20,960 bases of DNA, taken from an uncultured archaeon. GTDB lineage: Archaea; Asgardarchaeota; Lokiarchaeia; Sigyniarchaeales; SOKP01. Both the position numbers and the translations under genes were made by a program. The notes under the pieces were generated by a model. The model saw only the letters and a list, made by a program, of their open reading frames with translations, had not been told where the DNA came from and did no database searches. Of the stretch, positions 1,896-10,970 are shown one piece after another (the stretch's first letter is position 1; each line of letters opens with the position of its first letter). The stretch is from NCBI GenBank assembly GCA_964525635.1, contig CAZGJX010000083.1, positions 1-20,960 on the forward strand. Reading direction: 5' to 3'.

Positions 1896-3296
1896 TTAAT
1901 CCCAATTATCAAGGGCATATTCCATATATTCAATTGCTTTTAATTCATTAGATTTTGCCGTATCTAATAAGGATATACCTTGATCTACAGTCTTATTATT
2001 TAATATATTTGAATCTTGTTCAAAATAAGGAAATAATTCCGAGTATTCTTCTAGATTATGTTTAATTTTCCTATAATGTTTATTTGCTTGATTAAGAAAT
2101 TTTTTTGAGGATTGATTAGGTGTGCTATTTGATAGCCAATCTAAATATTCTGAACATGTATTTTTTGCATCATTGTAAAATTTAGCGAGGAATGAATTAC
2201 CAAAAATATTAAAATTATTTAAGTGATAATTTTCAAGAATATTACTCCATTCTGAATAAGCATCTGGACCTGCTACAAAATTAGATTTTGCCACATTAAT
2301 ACCCTTTGCAAATAAAATTGCACGTTTTAAAGAATCCTTATTGATATCTCTATTTTCATTATTGGAAAATCGGTCTTTGAAATAAAAATAATGAAATATA
2401 TCTAAAGGTTGGAGTTCATCATATTTTATTGGAGTATCTTCTTTCCCAAATAATCTAAAATAGGTACTTACTAAATAACTATCTTTCTGATAACCCCGTA
2501 TAATACCATAAGCAGGAACTCTTAATCCCCACATAATTACTGGTGTATCATCTATTTGAATTAATTGTTTTATCTTCTCAAAAATTTCTTCTGCTAATTT
2601 CAAATCTTCCTCAACTAATTTTCGAGATCTTGGATTTTTCATTTTTATTCTAACATTAATGATATTCCAACCAAAATCCTCTGTTCCTTTTTGAATTAAA
2701 TCCCATGCCGTATCAGATAATAGACTTTCAGCAAGAAAAGAAATCCATCCTTTTTGGATATTTGTTATAAAACTATACCCCGATTGTCCACCTACATGTA
2801 TATAATTATATTTCATTCCTAAGGACATTAAAATTCCGGATACGGATGAGATATATGAATTCCATCCTCCTTGATAAATTGGATTTGAGCCCACCATTTT
2901 TCCTAAAGGACTTAAAGGTAAACGATTGTATTTAAATTGCTCACTTATATAATCCTGTTCAATTTGAAGTTTCATATGTGATCTTTGATAAGTTAAAACA
3001 ATATTTTTAACAAAATCTATTCCATCTATACTTATTTTATATAGTCCTCTTTGTGTTCTTTTAATTAATCCAGAATTGATCAGACTAGATATATGATGTA
3101 TCAAGCTAGTCTTTTTTAATTGAGTAGTATCTAAAAAAAAAGAAAATAGTTTGGGACTTAAGAGAAGTTCAGCAAGGATTTTAAGCCTAATTGAATTCCC
3201 AGCAGATTTTAATATATTTGATATATTATCAAGAGAATCAATTAATATATTATATATTTTTTTATTATCGATAATATTATCCAATGTATCATTCAC
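1896..3296 (-). CDS. ArsR-like winged helix-turn-helix protein fused to a large uncharacterised C-terminal domain
   Basis: N-terminal LKSAGNSIRLKILAELL...KTSLIHHISSLINSGLIKRTQRGLYKIS is an ArsR-type wHTH. The roughly 330-aa C-terminal region (GGQSGYSF...GPDAYSEW...LFPY) is of uncertain function. Confidence 0.75.
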   Translation of the reverse strand: MNDTLDNIIDNKKIYNILIDSLDNISNILKSAGNSIRLKILAELLLSPKLFSFFLDTTQLKKTSLIHHISSLINSGLIKRTQRGLYKISIDGIDFVKNIVLTYQRSHMKLQIEQDYISEQFKYNRLPLSPLGKMVGSNPIYQGGWNSYISSVSGILMSLGMKYNYIHVGGQSGYSFITNIQKGWISFLAESLLSDTAWDLIQKGTEDFGWNIINVRIKMKNPRSRKLVEEDLKLAEEIFEKIKQLIQIDDTPVIMWGLRVPAYGIIRGYQKDSYLVSTYFRLFGKEDTPIKYDELQPLDIFHYFYFKDRFSNNENRDINKDSLKRAILFAKGINVAKSNFVAGPDAYSEWSNILENYHLNNFNIFGNSFLAKFYNDAKNTCSEYLDWLSNSTPNQSSKKFLNQANKHYRKIKHNLEEYSELFPYFEQDSNILNNKTVDQGISLLDTAKSNELKAIEYMEYALDNWD

Positions 3297-3777: not shown

Positions 3778-4218
3778 ATGAGTAAACCTAAATATGAGAT
3801 AGTAAAGTGGGAAAGTTATGAAATAGGAGATTCTGCGTCTCATACAAAAACCATCACGGAAACAGATATAATTCTATTTGCAGGAATTACAGGAGATTTC
3901 AATCCATTACATATGGATGAAGAATTTGCAAAAATCCAGATGTTTAAAAAGCGGATAATACATGGAGCATTCAGTGTTGGATTAATATCAGCAGTTTTAG
4001 GCACTAAATTATTTGGTCCAGGAATTTTATATGGTTCCCAAAATGTTAAATTTTTAAAACCAGTCTTCATAGGTGACACTTTATCTGCTGTAGCAACTGT
4101 TAAAGATAAATATACAAAAAAGGAAGGAAAATTAAAATTTCTTAAAATTGAAACAAAAGTATATAACCAAAATGATGAAGTTGTTACTGATGGCGAAGCA
4201 GAAATAATCTTTATGTAA
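3778..4218 (+). CDS. MaoC/PhaJ-family (R)-specific enoyl-CoA hydratase/dehydratase (hot-dog fold)
   Basis: Hydratase-2 motif FAGITGDFNPLHMD (catalytic Asp/His), RIIHG and FLKPVFIGDT. Confidence 0.93.
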   Translation: MSKPKYEIVKWESYEIGDSASHTKTITETDIILFAGITGDFNPLHMDEEFAKIQMFKKRIIHGAFSVGLISAVLGTKLFGPGILYGSQNVKFLKPVFIGDTLSAVATVKDKYTKKEGKLKFLKIETKVYNQNDEVVTDGEAEIIFM

Positions 4219-4426: not shown

Positions 4427-4963
4427 TTAATACTCTATACCATATCTAGCAATAATCCCTTTAGCGGAATAATAATGTTTCACTTGTTTCATTTCTGTAA
4501 CTAAATCAGCTACTTCTTTCAATTTTGGATGAATTTTTTGTCCACCAGTAAGTATTAATTCAACCTTCTCAGGTTTTTTTTCAATCAATTTCATTACATC
4601 ATCAATAGAAACGACTCCCATCTCGACTGCTACTCCAATTTCATCCAAAATAATTATATCATATTCATTTTTATTAAATACACTCTCAGCGAAGTTTATA
4701 GCTTTTTTTCCTTGATCTAAGTCAATATCTCTTGGACTTTCAATAAGTTCTTTAGTTCCAAATTGCTTTACTTGAAAATAAGGATTCTGTTTTATTGCTT
4801 CGATCTCCCCATATTCCATATTACCTTTCATAAATTGAATCATAAATACCTTAAAACCATGACCAGTTGCTCGAAAGCCCTGACCAATAGCTGCTGTTGT
4901 TTTTCCCTTACCTCTTCCATAGTAGCATTGAATTAATCCATATTCTAATCTTTTTCTCATCAT
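4427..4963 (-). CDS. cobO: ATP:cob(I)alamin adenosyltransferase, CobA/BtuR/CobO type
   Basis: P-loop YYGRGKGKTTAAIG, IQFMKG, YDIIILDE, ADLVTEM...KH and C-terminal ARYGIEY. Confidence 0.93.
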   Translation of the reverse strand: MMRKRLEYGLIQCYYGRGKGKTTAAIGQGFRATGHGFKVFMIQFMKGNMEYGEIEAIKQNPYFQVKQFGTKELIESPRDIDLDQGKKAINFAESVFNKNEYDIIILDEIGVAVEMGVVSIDDVMKLIEKKPEKVELILTGGQKIHPKLKEVADLVTEMKQVKHYYSAKGIIARYGIEY

Positions 4964-5155: not shown

Positions 5156-6037
5156 ATGCCACAGACTAAATTAATGGATTTGGAAGAAGCTATATCCACA
5201 TACATAGATGATGGAGATCTAATTGGGATTGGAGGATTATCCTTTTGGAGAAAACCAATAGCTACTTGCAGGGAAATCATTAGACAAAAAAAGAAAGAGC
5301 TTTCAATCTGTACTTTTGTGGGAGGTTTAGATGTTGATATGCTAATTGCGGCGGGATGTGTATCGGAAATCAGATCTTCTTTTGTAGGAATGGAAGTATT
5401 TGGAATGGCCCCTAATTATCGAAAAGCAGTTCAAGAAGCTAGTATAAAAATTATTGAAGAAACTGAAGCTTCAATAGCATTGGGATTAAAAGCCTCATAT
5501 TTAAAAGTACCTTTTATGCCATTGAAAGGAATAATCGGAACAGATTTTCCAAAAATTAGAAAGGATATAAAAGAATTTGAAGATCCTTTAGGTAGTGGAA
5601 TTAAATTAATGGCTCTTCCAAAAATAGATTTAGATGTTGCTATATTACATGTTCCCTATGCAGATGAGTATGGAAATGGGAATGTGGCTGGAGCAGTTTG
5701 GTTAGATGATGATATGGCTAAGACGGCTAAAAAGACCATTATTACTTGTGAAAAAATAGTTGAATTGAATGATATGATAAATTTACCAGGAAAAGCACAA
5801 TTGCCTATGCAGACAACAAAAGCAGTAGTTAAAGTTCCATTTGGAGCTCATCCAACTTCTTGCTATGACAAATATACATTTGATGCCTTGCATATTCAAA
5901 AATATATGAAAATTGATTTTAAAGATTATAAAAAGAAATATATTAATTTAGATTCTCATACACAGTATTTAGAAGAAGTGGGAGGGTCGCAGATGATTTC
6001 AAATATTAATCTACAAACGAAAAATACTTCAAATTGA
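5156..6037 (+). CDS. Family I CoA-transferase-like protein, alpha subunit (GctA/CatI/IpdA-like)
   Basis: KLMDLEEAI...DGDLIGIGG, DMLIAAGCV, VPFMP, DVAILHVPYADEYGN and VVKVPFGAHPTSC are typical of GctA-type subunits. Confidence 0.9.
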   Translation: MPQTKLMDLEEAISTYIDDGDLIGIGGLSFWRKPIATCREIIRQKKKELSICTFVGGLDVDMLIAAGCVSEIRSSFVGMEVFGMAPNYRKAVQEASIKIIEETEASIALGLKASYLKVPFMPLKGIIGTDFPKIRKDIKEFEDPLGSGIKLMALPKIDLDVAILHVPYADEYGNGNVAGAVWLDDDMAKTAKKTIITCEKIVELNDMINLPGKAQLPMQTTKAVVKVPFGAHPTSCYDKYTFDALHIQKYMKIDFKDYKKKYINLDSHTQYLEEVGGSQMISNINLQTKNTSN

Positions 6038-6068
6038 ATTAAAAAAAAAAGAGAAGGATTAAAATAAA

Positions 6069-6944
6069 ATGAGTGAAGAATCAAAAGATTATTCAATAGA
6101 TGAAATGATGGCCGTTTTAATGGCTAGAGAAGTCAGAAATGATGATGTTATGATTGTTGGTGTTGCTACTCCAATGGTTTGGTCAGCATTTACTTTAGCA
6201 AAATTAACTAATGCACCAAACGCTATTTATCATTATATTATGGGAAATACTTTTGTCTTCGAACCATGCCAAGTTTCATTATTATATCTTGAAATGAATA
6301 CAACAAGGGCTTATCGATTTCAAAACTCTGGAGAATGTACCTTGGAATCACTTCCATCTGATAATTTGACTACAATAGAATTTTTTAGACCTGCTCAAAT
6401 TGATCAATATGGAAATACAAATAATATTTGTATCGGAGATTGGTATAAACCTAAAATTAGATTACCAGGATGTGCGGGGATAGCAGATTTCTCAATGTTT
6501 TATTCACGTGGGACTTTTTTATACACTCCAAGACATGATACTAGAAGATTTGTTCCAAAGGTTGATTTTATTTCAGGAGTTGGTTTTCAAAATGGAAACA
6601 ATCCTTTATGTGGAGGTGCAGGACCTCAATCGGTTATAACCAATTTGGCTTATCTAGACTTTGAAGAAAGAAGTAAAACTATGAGATTGGCATCTTTACA
6701 TCCAGATATTGATATTGAGACAATTATAAAATCAACTGGTTTTGATTTAATTATTCCAAATAAAATAAAGAATACAAAACCTCCTACTAAAAAAGAAATA
6801 AAATTATTAAGAGAAAAGATAGATCCATTAAATATAAGGAAGTTAGAAGTGCTTACTGGAAAGGAAAGGGAAGAATTATTAAGTATCATTATAGAAAAAG
6901 AATTAGCAATGACAAATAAAATTCCTTTATTGTTAAATTCTTAG
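6069..6944 (+). CDS. Family I CoA-transferase-like protein, beta subunit (GctB/CatJ/IpdB-like), canonical catalytic Glu absent
   Basis: YSIDEMMAV, LAKLTNAPN, AQIDQYGNTN, RLPGCAGIAD, FVPKVDFISG, VITNL and MRLASLHP. Starts 31 bp after the alpha subunit stop on the same strand. Confidence 0.9.
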   Translation: MSEESKDYSIDEMMAVLMAREVRNDDVMIVGVATPMVWSAFTLAKLTNAPNAIYHYIMGNTFVFEPCQVSLLYLEMNTTRAYRFQNSGECTLESLPSDNLTTIEFFRPAQIDQYGNTNNICIGDWYKPKIRLPGCAGIADFSMFYSRGTFLYTPRHDTRRFVPKVDFISGVGFQNGNNPLCGGAGPQSVITNLAYLDFEERSKTMRLASLHPDIDIETIIKSTGFDLIIPNKIKNTKPPTKKEIKLLREKIDPLNIRKLEVLTGKEREELLSIIIEKELAMTNKIPLLLNS

Positions 6945-6955
6945 ATATATATTTA

Positions 6956-7933
6956 TCAATCATCCTTTTTAATTTTAAGATGAATATGATAATATAATTC
7001 TTTAAGTTCATTATATATATCAAATTTGTTATCTATTAATTTTAAAGCAATATTATTCAATTCATTATTGTTAAAGATTCGTTCAAAAATTATTTTTTCA
7101 ATAGTATCAACCATAGATTCTTTAATTTTATACATATAGCGTTGTTTCATTTTTATTTTGATTTTTTCAGAAAGTTCCAAATATTCTTTATGTTCATATA
7201 TTTTTTCAATTAATTCATCAATACCTTCACCAGTTATAGAATTTGTCATCAAAACGGGAGGTCTCCAACCAGATTGAGTAATTGTAGAATCATCTAACAT
7301 AAGTTCAATTTGAACAGCAATGTCTTCTCCACCCAAATCTTTCTTATTTATATTGTATATCTCACCTATTTCAATAATTCCAGCTTTTTGAATTTGAATA
7401 GCATCACCATAACCAGGCACTAAAACTACAACAGTGCTATAAACTAAGTTATGGATTTCAAGTTCTGCTTGTCCAACACCAACAGTCTCAATTATTATTA
7501 TATCCATACCAAAAGCTTCATACAATAAAGTTATGTCGAATACTGCTCTGGAGATTCCCCCCGCATAACCACGAGTTGCTAAACTTCTTATAAAAACATT
7601 AGGATGACATGTAATCTTGGTCATTCTTATACGATCTCCTAGAAAAGCCCCACCACTAAAAGGTGATGTAGGATCAACAGATATAATTCCAACTTTTTTA
7701 CCATCTTCTGCTAGTGTCATTGCAACTTGACCCGTTAGAGTACTTTTTCCAACACCCGGAGAGCCTGTGATTCCTATAATATATGAATCATGTTTTAGAT
7801 TATTAAAATCTTTAAATATCTTTGATGCTGATGAGGGATCATTTTCAACCAAAGTTATCAATTTTGCAAGAGCAATTTTATCTTTTTCTTTAAATCTCTG
7901 ACATAATTGGTCAATATTATCGTTTGTATTCAA
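6956..7933 (-). CDS. meaB: MeaB/ArgK/MMAA GTPase chaperone for AdoCbl-dependent acyl-CoA mutase
   Basis: ALAKLITLVEN, Walker A GITGSPGVGKST, VDPTSPFSGGAFLGDRIRM, VFIRSLATRG, IETVGVGQAE, GDAIQIQKAG and NKKD. TTG start with GGGTG upstream. Confidence 0.96.
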   Translation of the reverse strand: MNTNDNIDQLCQRFKEKDKIALAKLITLVENDPSSASKIFKDFNNLKHDSYIIGITGSPGVGKSTLTGQVAMTLAEDGKKVGIISVDPTSPFSGGAFLGDRIRMTKITCHPNVFIRSLATRGYAGGISRAVFDITLLYEAFGMDIIIIETVGVGQAELEIHNLVYSTVVVLVPGYGDAIQIQKAGIIEIGEIYNINKKDLGGEDIAVQIELMLDDSTITQSGWRPPVLMTNSITGEGIDELIEKIYEHKEYLELSEKIKIKMKQRYMYKIKESMVDTIEKIIFERIFNNNELNNIALKLIDNKFDIYNELKELYYHIHLKIKKDD

Positions 7934-8136: not shown

Positions 8137-8535
8137 TTACTTATTAATACTACTTGTAATAAAATCTACTATATCTTTTGTAATTGTTCCTGGACCATAA
8201 ATATTTGCAACACCTAATTCCTTTAATTTTGGAAAATCATTTACAGGTATTACTCCTCCTAAAATTATCAAGAAATTGTTTTTTACGCCTTTTTTATCTA
8301 ATTTTTCGATTAGTTGCTTCGTAAAAATCGTATGCGCTCCTGAATGGATACTCATCCCTATCACATCTACATCTTCATGAATTGCTGACTCGACTATTTG
8401 ATCAATACTTTGAAATCCCCCATAAATAAGCTCCATACCTGCATCTCTTAAAGCACGAGCCACAACTATAGATCCTCTGAAATGACCTCCGATTCCAGGC
8501 TTTGAGATTAAAACTCTTATTTTTTTTTCAGCCAT
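8137..8535 (-). CDS. Cobalamin-binding small subunit of acyl-CoA mutase (variant motif GGHFRG)
   Basis: KIRVLISKPG-IGGH-FRG, ARALRDAGME, EDVDVIGMSIHSGAH, LGGVIP and YGPGT. ATG at 8535 preferred over the TTG at 8541. Confidence 0.93.
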   Translation of the reverse strand: MAEKKIRVLISKPGIGGHFRGSIVVARALRDAGMELIYGGFQSIDQIVESAIHEDVDVIGMSIHSGAHTIFTKQLIEKLDKKGVKNNFLIILGGVIPVNDFPKLKELGVANIYGPGTITKDIVDFITSSINK

Positions 8536-8750
8536 AATCAATTCAATTTAATTAAAATCTAATTTCCATAATTAATTTTAAATTTTTAATAGTCAATAAT
8601 TTTAAATTTTTCCGATTTAGATTATATATTGTTTTAAAATATTAGTATATTTATTTAAATATCAAATTAATAAATTAAATAATAATAAAATACTTAACCT
8701 CATAGAAAAATAAAACAAAATATAAATTAAATTAATGTTTATAGATTAAA

Positions 8751-9296: not shown

Positions 9297-10970
9297 TTAA
9301 ATTGCTAATGGAGGTTCCCAAATACTCCATATTTCTCTATAAATATCACATATTTCGCCAACAGTAGCTCCTTCTTTTGTAGCCTTCATTATTATTGGCA
9401 TTACATTTTCCTCTCGCTCACATACATTTCGGAGTTCATCTAATATTGTTTCTAGTTTATTATTATCTCTCTTCTCTTTTAATTTTTTAATTCTTTTTAT
9501 TTCAATATCCATCGCTTCTTCATTTGTTTTAAAAACATCGCAGATGGTATCATATGAGATTGGATATTTATTTACACCTAACATAATTTCAGCTCCATTC
9601 TCCATTCGTTTTTGTCTCTTATGAAAAGCATCTCTCATCTCTTTATATAACCATCCAGTTGATAATGCTTTATCTATAGTACCAATACTTTTAATTTTAT
9701 CCATATATTTCCATACTCTTTCTTCGATTTCATCAGTTAGCCATTCTACATAATATGATCCAGCTAGAGGATCAACAGTATTGGTAATACGTGATTCATT
9801 TTCTATGATTTGTTGAGTTCTGAGAGCTACTAATGCAGCTTGTTTAGATGGAAGGCAAATCGCCTCATCATATGAATTAGTATGTAATGATTGGCATCCT
9901 CCTAATGTTGCTTCAAGTGCTTGGATTGCAGTTCTAGCTATATTAATTTGAGGCATTTGTGCGGTTAGAGAACTTCCTGCTGTCTGTACATGAAATCTAA
10001 ATTGAAGTGATTTTGGATCTTTAGCATTATATTGCTCTTTTATTAATTTTGCCCAAATTCTCCTTGCTGCTCTATATTTTGCAATTTCTTCAAAAAAATC
10101 CTTATGAGCTGAAAGGTGAAAAGCTAATCTATTAACGAAATCATCAACTTTCCATCCTCTTTCAATTAAATTTTCAATATGAGAACATGCGCTGGAGAAA
10201 ACAAATCCTAATTCTTGAACTGCATCAATACCTCCTTCTCTGTAATTATAACCTGTAAAATTAATTGGGTGCCACTTAGGTACGTTTTTCATTGGTACAG
10301 TCCATTCAATAAAATCACAAGCTAAACGTAGTAAATGATCTGGAGGGACATTTTTATATGGGATATATCCAACAGTCATTGTTAAAATATCATTTTGCGT
10401 TGTACCCATAAGATTTTTAATATCATAACCCTTTATTTTTGCCATATTAAAATACATTGAACAAACTGGAGCAGAAGTAAATGGTTCAACAACTAAAGCA
10501 ACACTAATTTTATCAATTGGAATATCTTTAGTAAGTGCAAATAAACTATCTATACAATATAGAGGAACACCTGAAGTACCCACTTCTGGAGCACCATCTT
10601 TATTAGTTGGATCAATACCATTAAATGTTAAAGCATCAACAGCAGCACTATAACCTGTTTCTCCATGCTTATATAAGAATTTCCAACGCTCATTAGTCTC
10701 TTCGGGAGTGCCATGACCACTGAATAATCGCATTGTCCATACTCTTCCCCTATACATAGATGAGTAGGGCCCTCTTGTGTAAGGAGGTTCTCCAGGAAAT
10801 CTTACATTCTCAAGATAGTCTCCTTTTATATCTAGGGGAGTATATAATTTCTTAACAGGGATTCCTGAATCTGTTTCAAATCTCTGATCACTTTCTTTTG
10901 TATCTTTATGTTTTTTTTCCCATTCTTCTTTTTCTTGTCTTATTCTTTGTAAATAATCCTTATCATACAT
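9297..10970 (-). CDS. AdoCbl-dependent acyl-CoA mutase, large (TIM-barrel, substrate-binding) subunit; methylmalonyl-CoA mutase family, specificity unknown
   Basis: 557 aa. TDSGIPVKKLYTP, PGEPPYTRGPY, GTTQNDIL, FFEEIAKYRAARRIW, RFHVQTAGSSLTAQ, QSLHTNSYDEA, DPLAGSYYVE and ATVGEI. No fused B12 domain. Confidence 0.96.
   Translation of the reverse strand: MYDKDYLQRIRQEKEEWEKKHKDTKESDQRFETDSGIPVKKLYTPLDIKGDYLENVRFPGEPPYTRGPYSSMYRGRVWTMRLFSGHGTPEETNERWKFLYKHGETGYSAAVDALTFNGIDPTNKDGAPEVGTSGVPLYCIDSLFALTKDIPIDKISVALVVEPFTSAPVCSMYFNMAKIKGYDIKNLMGTTQNDILTMTVGYIPYKNVPPDHLLRLACDFIEWTVPMKNVPKWHPINFTGYNYREGGIDAVQELGFVFSSACSHIENLIERGWKVDDFVNRLAFHLSAHKDFFEEIAKYRAARRIWAKLIKEQYNAKDPKSLQFRFHVQTAGSSLTAQMPQINIARTAIQALEATLGGCQSLHTNSYDEAICLPSKQAALVALRTQQIIENESRITNTVDPLAGSYYVEWLTDEIEERVWKYMDKIKSIGTIDKALSTGWLYKEMRDAFHKRQKRMENGAEIMLGVNKYPISYDTICDVFKTNEEAMDIEIKRIKKLKEKRDNNKLETILDELRNVCEREENVMPIIMKATKEGATVGEICDIYREIWSIWEPPLAI

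Follow-up and report, generated by a model that had tools for sequence, protein, structure and literature searches.

A GctAB-like subunit pair beside a variant B12-dependent mutase in Lokiarchaeia lacks the catalytic glutamate and is most likely not a CoA-transferase

In the genome of an uncultured Lokiarchaeia archaeon (GenBank assembly GCA_964525635.1, contig CAZGJX010000083.1), a stretch of 20,960 nucleotides, which is referred to here as the window, encodes two proteins that resemble the subunits of glutaconate CoA-transferase (GctAB), together with the genes of an acyl-CoA mutase that depends on B12. The catalytic glutamate of the family is absent from the beta subunit of this pair, and the pair most likely acts on an acyl-CoA as a hydrolase, lyase or decarboxylase and not as a transferase. 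The two open reading frames (ORFs) are 31 bases apart, and each of them matches the Pfam family PF01144 (CoA_trans) over almost the whole model and above its cut-off. The features of the pair are as follows.

5156..6037, + strand: alpha subunit of the GctAB-like pair, 293 amino acids (PF01144, E 3.7e-13)
5393-5395, + strand: alpha Glu80 in the motif FVGME, a generally conserved acid at the predicted subunit interface
6069..6944, + strand: beta subunit of the pair, 291 amino acids (PF01144, E 2.1e-12)

In Acidaminococcus fermentans GctB, the catalytic residue is Glu54, and it stands in the context APDCHIIVESG, which had been given in an earlier note on this DNA and is borne out by comparison with the GctB sequence (1POI). 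In the window, beta residues 49-60 read APNAIYHYIMGN, and the equivalent segment APNAIYHYIMG (residues 49-59) carries Ile57, whose ATT codon at 6237-6239 is two base changes away from any glutamate codon. The absence of the glutamate had been the central claim of the earlier note, and it stands in three independent alignments: a profile of 36 clade members is ungapped against GctB in this stretch and matches the Ile57 column with Glu54, the E-x-G sequences among 144 relatives aligned by MAFFT share this same column, and a pairwise alignment with AibB, the beta subunit of the decarboxylase AibAB, sets it on Cys56, which is marked by the crystallised variants C56A/S/N/V. A plain pairwise HMMER alignment to GctB is shifted by three residues and places Tyr54 on the catalytic column instead; residues 53-59 (IYHYIMG) contain no acid under either alignment of beta to GctB. 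In the AlphaFold2 (AF2) model of the beta subunit, Ile57 directly follows the strand at 53-56, like the catalytic glutamate of the family. Because the motif HYIMGN is invariant in 69 beta orthologues from public genomes, the substitution is, on the strength of this conservation, not due to chance or sequencing error.

Several examples have been described in which this column is changed in related enzymes. In CtfAB, the variants E46S and E46A have no activity, and E46D acts as a hydrolase only (PMC12400318). IpdAB, a COCHEA-CoA hydrolase which the earlier note had aptly chosen as its precedent, has Gly57 of IpdB at the glutamate position and showed no CoA transfer with short acyl-CoAs (PMC5380842), and AibAB, with a cysteine in this column, is a decarboxylase (PMC7756340). 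Because of these cases, canonical ping-pong CoA transfer by the Lokiarchaeia pair is, by analogy, unlikely; the beta glutamate that forms the enzyme-CoA thioester is replaced by Ile57, so ping-pong transfer would not be expected.

The fold is intact, in line with the intact fold motifs described in the earlier note. The AF2 models have a predicted local distance difference test (pLDDT) score of 91.9 for beta and 92.8 for alpha, with TM-scores by target length of 0.81-0.91 against the GctAB, IpdAB and AibAB chains. The predicted alpha-beta heterodimer has an ipSAE of 0.90, as opposed to 0.01 for the best control, where 58 of 80 solved complexes reach the mark used, as do 2 of 110 mismatched pairs, and where the pass may reflect memory because like complexes have already been solved. 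The heterodimer runs share at least 94% of their contacts, with a partner pLDDT of at least 88, and the two PF01144 subunits are thereby predicted to form an alpha-beta unit as in family I CoA-transferases. The confident part of the predicted interface comprises alpha residues 80-82, 101 and 103-105 and beta residues 58-61, 75-76 and 125-137. Such a heterodimer of the glutaconate CoA-transferase fold would bind its acyl-CoA at the subunit interface.

Among the acids that might take over from the beta glutamate, the discriminating residue is alpha Glu104 (codon 5465-5467, motif EETEA), which sequence comparison suggests as the catalytic acid. In an ungapped alignment it falls on IpdA Glu105, the residue that is the sole difference between the structures 6CO6 and 6COJ ('E105A COCHEA-CoA complex') and that is said to have been found catalytic in the 2018 work of Crowe et al. 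on the IpdAB structure. The same position is Ser in GctA and Gly in AibA. Glu104 is invariant in 62 alpha orthologues, and the active-site-region motifs that are invariant in the orthologues are HYIMGN, EE(S/T)EA, RPAQ and PG.AG. Beyond the orthologues, the residue is kept in the closest bacterial relatives and in the alpha partners of four of the five nearest non-orthologous relatives (L006, L085, L087 and L078; Asn in L086), and it is present in 4 of 14 fused forms; none of these Glu104 bearers, fused or nearest relatives, has the beta glutamate. Both Glu104 and the second precedent, the decarboxylase AibAB, had been passed over in the earlier note.

The position of Glu104 also allows a different reading. 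When Escherichia coli AtoD is added to the alpha profile (MAFFT and HMMER), the Gln of its PQGT motif lands on Glu104, and we take Q98 of CtfAB to be the alpha-chain Gln of this same position. Q98 has been described as hydrogen-bonding the catalytic Glu46 (PMC12400318). If Q98 is indeed the PQGT Gln, Glu104 would lie beside the old catalytic position, and its carboxylate could reach the same space. The pair could in that case be a genuine CoA-transferase, in which Glu104 serves as a relocated nucleophile that forms the acyl anhydride and the enzyme-CoA thioester, and which activates or releases an acid of the mutase pathway. This would agree with the intact fold, CoA-binding core and RPAQxDxxGNxNN motif, and also with the content of the host genome (4.45 Mb, rated 100% complete), in which no other PF01144 gene was found besides the alpha-beta pair, so that the pair would be its only family I CoA-transferase. 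However, IpdAB has the same alpha glutamate and is the very enzyme that showed no transfer with short acyl-CoAs, and in the window a different sequence replaces a loop that reads GSGG in 12 of 13 Glu-bearing relatives and GGGG in the remaining one. We also know of no family I enzyme reported to use an alpha-subunit nucleophile, and a transferase of this kind is regarded as improbable.

The two acids that the earlier note had put forward as replacements, in alpha FVGMEVFG and beta FVFEP, did not hold up. At the position of alpha Glu80 an acid is found in nearly all relatives checked, which include IpdA (Asp) and the fused protein P0233; because P0233 itself bears the beta glutamate, Glu80 was rejected as a replacement, and a supporting role at the predicted interface is possible for it. 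The FVFEP motif is present in beta as the earlier note had stated, with its acid at Glu65, not Glu66. This residue is E, D, K, R or S among the nearest relatives and lies outside the confident interface residues of the predicted heterodimer, and it was ruled out as a clade-wide catalytic residue. A further candidate, beta Glu75 (6291-6293), is nearly invariant in the window clade and aligns, in a loop, within 1-3 residues of AibB Glu72/Asp73. It was ruled out as a relocated nucleophile, with E or D in this column in 119 of 144 relatives, the Glu-bearing ones (transferases) included.

The wider family was collected by an exhaustive search, which returned 1844 relatives at E ≤0.001, and beyond the window's own cluster one representative is 61% identical and the next ones are at most 45%. 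A FastTree tree was built from the 139 nearest 50%-identity cluster representatives, with motif labels and PDB profile scores in place of GctB, IpdB and AibB rows. In this tree, a clade with support 100 unites the window with five orthologues and the 61% relative, and it is nested in a clade of 39 rows without any Glu-bearing member; the 13 Glu-bearing rows group elsewhere, and the whole tree is explained by two state changes. The profile of the clade scores about equally against GctB (151 bits), AibB (143 bits) and IpdB (139 bits). By these sequence comparisons, the pair is an orthologue of none of GctAB, AibAB and IpdAB, and is a member of a large lineage in which the glutamate is absent throughout.

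Among the 151 Asgard genomes sampled, orthologues of at least 72% identity are found only in the window's own GTDB family, across which the pair is 72-86% identical, and one other Asgard family has relatives that are 54-56% identical. The close protein relatives are nearly all in metagenome-assembled genomes (MAGs) labelled Promethearchaeota or Lokiarchaeota; some orthologue-bearing MAGs are named Hermod-, Hod-, Thor- or Odinarchaeota, and these names are probably not a sign of wide spread. One 77%-identical beta orthologue (L012, DATKTW010000023.1) is on a contig filed as 'Candidatus Nanopelagicaceae bacterium', which is probably a mis-binned Asgard contig. The nearest bacterial relatives without the glutamate (L087 1-12921; L086 1837-3768) are found in beta-oxidation-like clusters with hydantoinase A/B-type ATP-dependent enzymes, thiolase, 3-hydroxyacyl-CoA dehydrogenase, acyl-CoA dehydrogenase, AMP-ligase and a DUF35-type protein, a context more in keeping with the processing of CoA esters than with CoA shuttling. 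These bacterial surroundings are an uncharacterised type of catabolic cluster. As for the window itself, its G+C content is 21-33%, and the same DNA occurs in salt-marsh metagenome runs; with regard to expression, these metagenomes are the only runs with the same DNA, and no RNA run is listed among them. Nothing specific on this Asgard pair was found in full-text literature searches.

A second reading arises from the loop of the beta subunit. Where Glu-bearing relatives have the G-x-G-G loop mentioned above, the window has PGCAG (P133-G137; 6465-6479), which matches PGVAG in AibB, whose Gly134 amide contacts the enolate. The pair could then be a cofactor-free decarboxylase like AibAB, which would remove CO2 from a malonyl-type or vinylogous glutaconyl-type acyl-CoA by way of an enolate, with the substrate of the mutase as its product or precursor. 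In keeping with this, the residue at the glutamate column is neutral, as is the dispensable Cys56 of AibB, AibB Glu72, which has been proposed as the proton source, is 1-3 residues away from beta Glu75, and the beta model has its best TM-score and root-mean-square deviation (rmsd) to AibB (target-length TM-score 0.89-0.91, as opposed to 0.81-0.86 for IpdB). The alpha subunit gives a different picture, since AibA has Gly at the position of the invariant Glu104, and the AibAB type of decarboxylase has no alpha acid in its acyl pocket, where a hydrophobic cavity receives the leaving carboxylate. The alpha model also fits AibA clearly worse (Foldseek query TM-score, TMq, 0.74; rmsd 5-7 Å) than IpdA (TMq 0.87; rmsd 2.1-2.5 Å), with a TMq of 0.89 to GctA. 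The acid at beta column 75 is found family-wide, in Glu-bearing members too, and is thus not diagnostic, and neither an HMG-CoA synthase nor an AibC-type reductase is encoded in the window. A decarboxylase of this kind is regarded as unlikely, and as a live rival all the same.

The pair is flanked by genes for an acyl-CoA mutase and for the handling of its cofactor.

6956..7933, - strand: MeaB-type G-protein chaperone of B12 mutases, convergent with the beta gene (PF03308, E 2.6e-80; TIGR00750, 298 bits, above cut-off)
8137..8541, - strand: B12-binding small subunit of the mutase (PF02310, TIGR00640)
9297..10970, - strand: acyl-CoA mutase large subunit with a non-canonical substrate pocket (PF01642, E 6.7e-166)
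4427..4963, - strand: ATP:cob(I)alamin adenosyltransferase of the CobA/BtuR type (PF02572, E 1.2e-54)
3778..4218, + strand: MaoC-type (R)-specific enoyl-CoA hydratase (PF01575, E 1.1e-27)

The best solved relative of the mutase large subunit is the 2-hydroxyisobutyryl-CoA mutase (HCM) subunit HcmA (4R3U, 418 bits; 338 bits for human methylmalonyl-CoA mutase, MCM). Its motifs read RLFSG, with Phe at MCM Tyr89, TVGY, with Tyr at Arg207, and GYNYREGG, with Asn at His244, and the position of HCM Asp117 is Ala (SAAVD). This pocket signature is present wherever it is readable in 13 mutase orthologues beside the pair. Going by these motifs, the large subunit is not a methylmalonyl-CoA mutase, and its pocket is unlike those of MCM, isobutyryl-CoA mutase (ICM) and HCM. 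The B12 loop of the small subunit, SKPGIGGHFRG, keeps the His and has lost both Asp residues, as opposed to the canonical KPGLDGHDRG of a paralogue on contig C128 of the host genome. On that contig there is a second split acyl-CoA mutase (L081 1426-3479), whose motifs RQFAG, IAQKSW and GYHIREAG give the Phe/Gln/His pattern of isobutyryl-CoA mutase; these are the only two PF01642 matches in the host genome, and neither has the canonical Tyr/Arg/His pattern of methylmalonyl-CoA mutase. The pocket is a further point for a decarboxylase: the mutase is without the carboxylate-binding Tyr and Arg, and it would therefore accept a decarboxylated acyl-CoA. Such an arrangement parallels the logic of the E. 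coli sbm operon, in which a mutase is combined with a methylmalonyl-CoA decarboxylase.

The earlier note had proposed that the pair works with the mutase, and this link has comparative support. Neighbours were counted within 10 kb of the beta orthologue in 72 loci, where a CobA-type adenosyltransferase was found in 38, MeaB in 26, the mutase small subunit in 18, the large subunit in 15 and MaoC in 13. When the count is restricted to loci whose flank reaches 7 kb or more (n=47 upstream; n=43 downstream), CobA is upstream of beta in 33 of 47, more often than any other conserved neighbour, MaoC is upstream in 12 of 47, MeaB is downstream in 19 of 43, and 10 of 43 have the mutase large subunit. 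Across 41 genomes of the window's family, with presence of the variant mutase set at 75% identity or more, both the pair and the variant mutase occur in 26, the pair alone in 3, the mutase alone in 5 and neither of them in 7, which gives a co-occurrence odds ratio of 12 among related genomes that are not independent. The link between pair and mutase is real but loose.

Other neighbours are less constant. An AMP-forming ligase was rejected as a conserved partner, being present in only 11 of the 72 loci and without an orthologue in the host genome; another activating enzyme would then be needed, which is a point in favour of the pair as a transferase. A gene of the nitroreductase family (PF00881) lies between alpha and beta in one locus (L004 7162-7959), and 27 of the 72 loci have a homologue within 10 kb of beta, in many cases some 0.9 kb upstream of it; in the window, no gene of this kind separates alpha from beta. 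This protein may take part in cobalamin reduction or in the pathway. A 466-amino-acid ORF of the window (1896-3296, - strand) has no Pfam family and only a weak match to an ArsR-type helix-turn-helix at its N-terminus, and none of the 72 related loci has a look-alike of it within 10 kb of beta.

The same neighbourhood could be read in yet another way, in which the pair is a non-catalytic, CoA-ester-binding accessory that delivers substrate to the B12 mutase or protects it, or else catalyses an intramolecular shift of CoA between the carboxyls of a dicarboxylate. The most frequent neighbours, CobA and MeaB, do handle the cofactor as opposed to being pathway enzymes, and in many of the 27 loci the nitroreductase-family gene is within about 1 kb upstream of beta, which is read as a position between alpha and beta. 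For the intramolecular transfer there is an example in the iaa (auxin) cluster, where a mutase occurs with the phenylsuccinyl-CoA transferase IaaL, a family III enzyme known for such a transfer, and with a decarboxylating dehydrogenase (PMC8360864). The word 'glutaconate' is absent from that paper, so that it describes no pair of the Gct type, and the auxin pathway was rejected as a lead. An accessory role is nevertheless very improbable, as the residues of the active-site region are invariant, the identity of 72-86% across the family fits a strongly constrained enzyme, and three genomes hold the pair without the variant mutase.

The reading we favour is that of a non-transferase enzyme, and at slightly less than an even chance it is put forward only tentatively. 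As to chemistry and substrate, we infer from the sequences and from the analogy with IpdAB that the acyl-CoA would be held non-covalently and that alpha Glu104, at the position of IpdA Glu105, would act on it as a general base. Glu104 may activate a water molecule, which in turn would lead to hydration and then to retro-Claisen-type C-C cleavage of a beta-keto or enoyl thioester, or alternatively to hydrolysis of the thioester itself. The pair would share one pathway with the adenosylcobalamin (AdoCbl)-dependent variant mutase, MeaB, the adenosyltransferase and the MaoC hydratase. The suggestion of the earlier note that the pair is a repurposed acyl-CoA hydrolase or C-C lyase remains plausible in view of the lost beta glutamate and the IpdAB precedent; what it did not take into account is that a decarboxylase is a live rival.

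Several observations weigh against the hydrolytic reading. Glu104 stands, by sequence, at an ancestral Gln site, and if it were itself a nucleophile that has moved, the pair would be a true transferase. The PGxAG loop of beta matches that of the decarboxylase AibB, and the beta model is slightly nearer to AibB than to IpdB. The identity to IpdAB is only 22-27%, and the window holds no hint of ring or steroid catabolism. Nor is the association with the mutase universal, as shown by the three pair-only and five mutase-only genomes, and gene order is fluid, with unrelated genes inserted between alpha and beta in some loci (homoserine dehydrogenase and threonine synthase in one of them). The 54%-identical pair of the other Asgard family adjoins unrelated genes. 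That pair (L090, G038 contig C1, 5155-7864) is also a few genes away from weak matches of eukaryote type, namely Vps36/ESCRT-II with a GRAM domain and CCDC47.

Taken as a whole, the locus might encode an undescribed AdoCbl-dependent acyl-CoA pathway of one Lokiarchaeia family, made up of the pair, the mutase with its Phe/Tyr/Asn pocket and Asp-less B12 loop, MeaB, the adenosyltransferase and MaoC, in which an enzyme of the CoA-transferase fold would carry out hydrolytic C-C cleavage or decarboxylation on a carbon skeleton that has been, or is to be, rearranged. This wider proposal is rather doubtful; if true, it would mean a new substrate class for both enzyme families, that of the CoA-transferase fold and that of the B12 mutases. 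The lineage is tied to a B12 mutase with a pocket that fits none of the known specificities, and the two enzymes together are a target in the search for a new anaerobic acyl-CoA pathway. The findings also bear on annotation, as pipelines label the two genes 'CoA-transferase subunit A/B' or 'glutaconate CoA-transferase'. Because the pair is without the glutamate and its two genes are the sole PF01144 genes in a genome rated 100% complete, Asgard metabolic reconstructions that use it for free short-chain acids through CoA transfer (propionate, butyrate or glutamate fermentation) are probably wrong. Since the glutamate is kept in only 13 of the 139 nearest cluster representatives, such mis-annotation would be general.

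Of the known systems, GctAB of A. fermentans is the best solved match for the pair (1POI; alpha 124 bits, E 8e-35; beta 108 bits, E 4e-30), with which it shares the alpha-beta architecture, the length class and the APD/N strand leading into the catalytic site; IpdAB (6CO6, 6CON) and AibAB (5MZW) come next. It differs in that GctB Glu54 is replaced by Ile57, GSGGA by GCAGIA, and the Ser of GctA by Glu104, and in the tree the Glu-bearing relatives are separate from the window clade.

IpdAB acts in steroid ring C/D catabolism in Rhodococcus jostii RHA1 and Mycobacterium tuberculosis (PDB 6CO6, 6CO9, 6COJ and 6CON). Like the window pair, it has the two-subunit Gct-type fold without the catalytic beta glutamate, an alpha glutamate at the same aligned position (Glu105 in IpdA, Glu104 in the window) and an acid at the Glu80 position, and IpdA matches alpha with an E of 2.6e-27, as opposed to 2.9e-19 for AibA. 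Unlike the window pair, IpdB has the loop FGVRG where the window has PGCAG, at the low identity given above; by this motif IpdB, which is not itself a row of the tree, would resemble a different clade with VGARG and IGPRG loops. The surroundings differ as well, the window pair being in an archaeon and beside a B12 mutase, with no KstR2-type context and no steroid-catabolic genes found by profile searches of the window proteins.

AibAB, the 3-methylglutaconyl-CoA decarboxylase of Myxococcus xanthus (PDB 5MZW-5N03), likewise has the Gct-type fold, a neutral residue at the glutamate column (Cys56 in AibB, Ile57 in the window), a PGxAG loop (Ala133 and Gly134) and an acid about 16-18 residues downstream of that column, and gives the best TM-score for beta. 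It differs in the Gly of AibA at the Glu104 position and in the poor fit of the alpha chain, at about 24% identity. The partners of AibAB are HMG-CoA synthase, LiuC and AibC, all of which are absent beside the window pair. Pairs of the Gct type without the glutamate are thus already known, and two of them, IpdAB and AibAB, have been characterised; the Lokiarchaeia pair forms an archaeal lineage of its own, whose partner is another one, the B12 mutase, and it adds a third, phylogenetically separate lineage to the enzymes of the CoA-transferase fold whose chemistry has changed.

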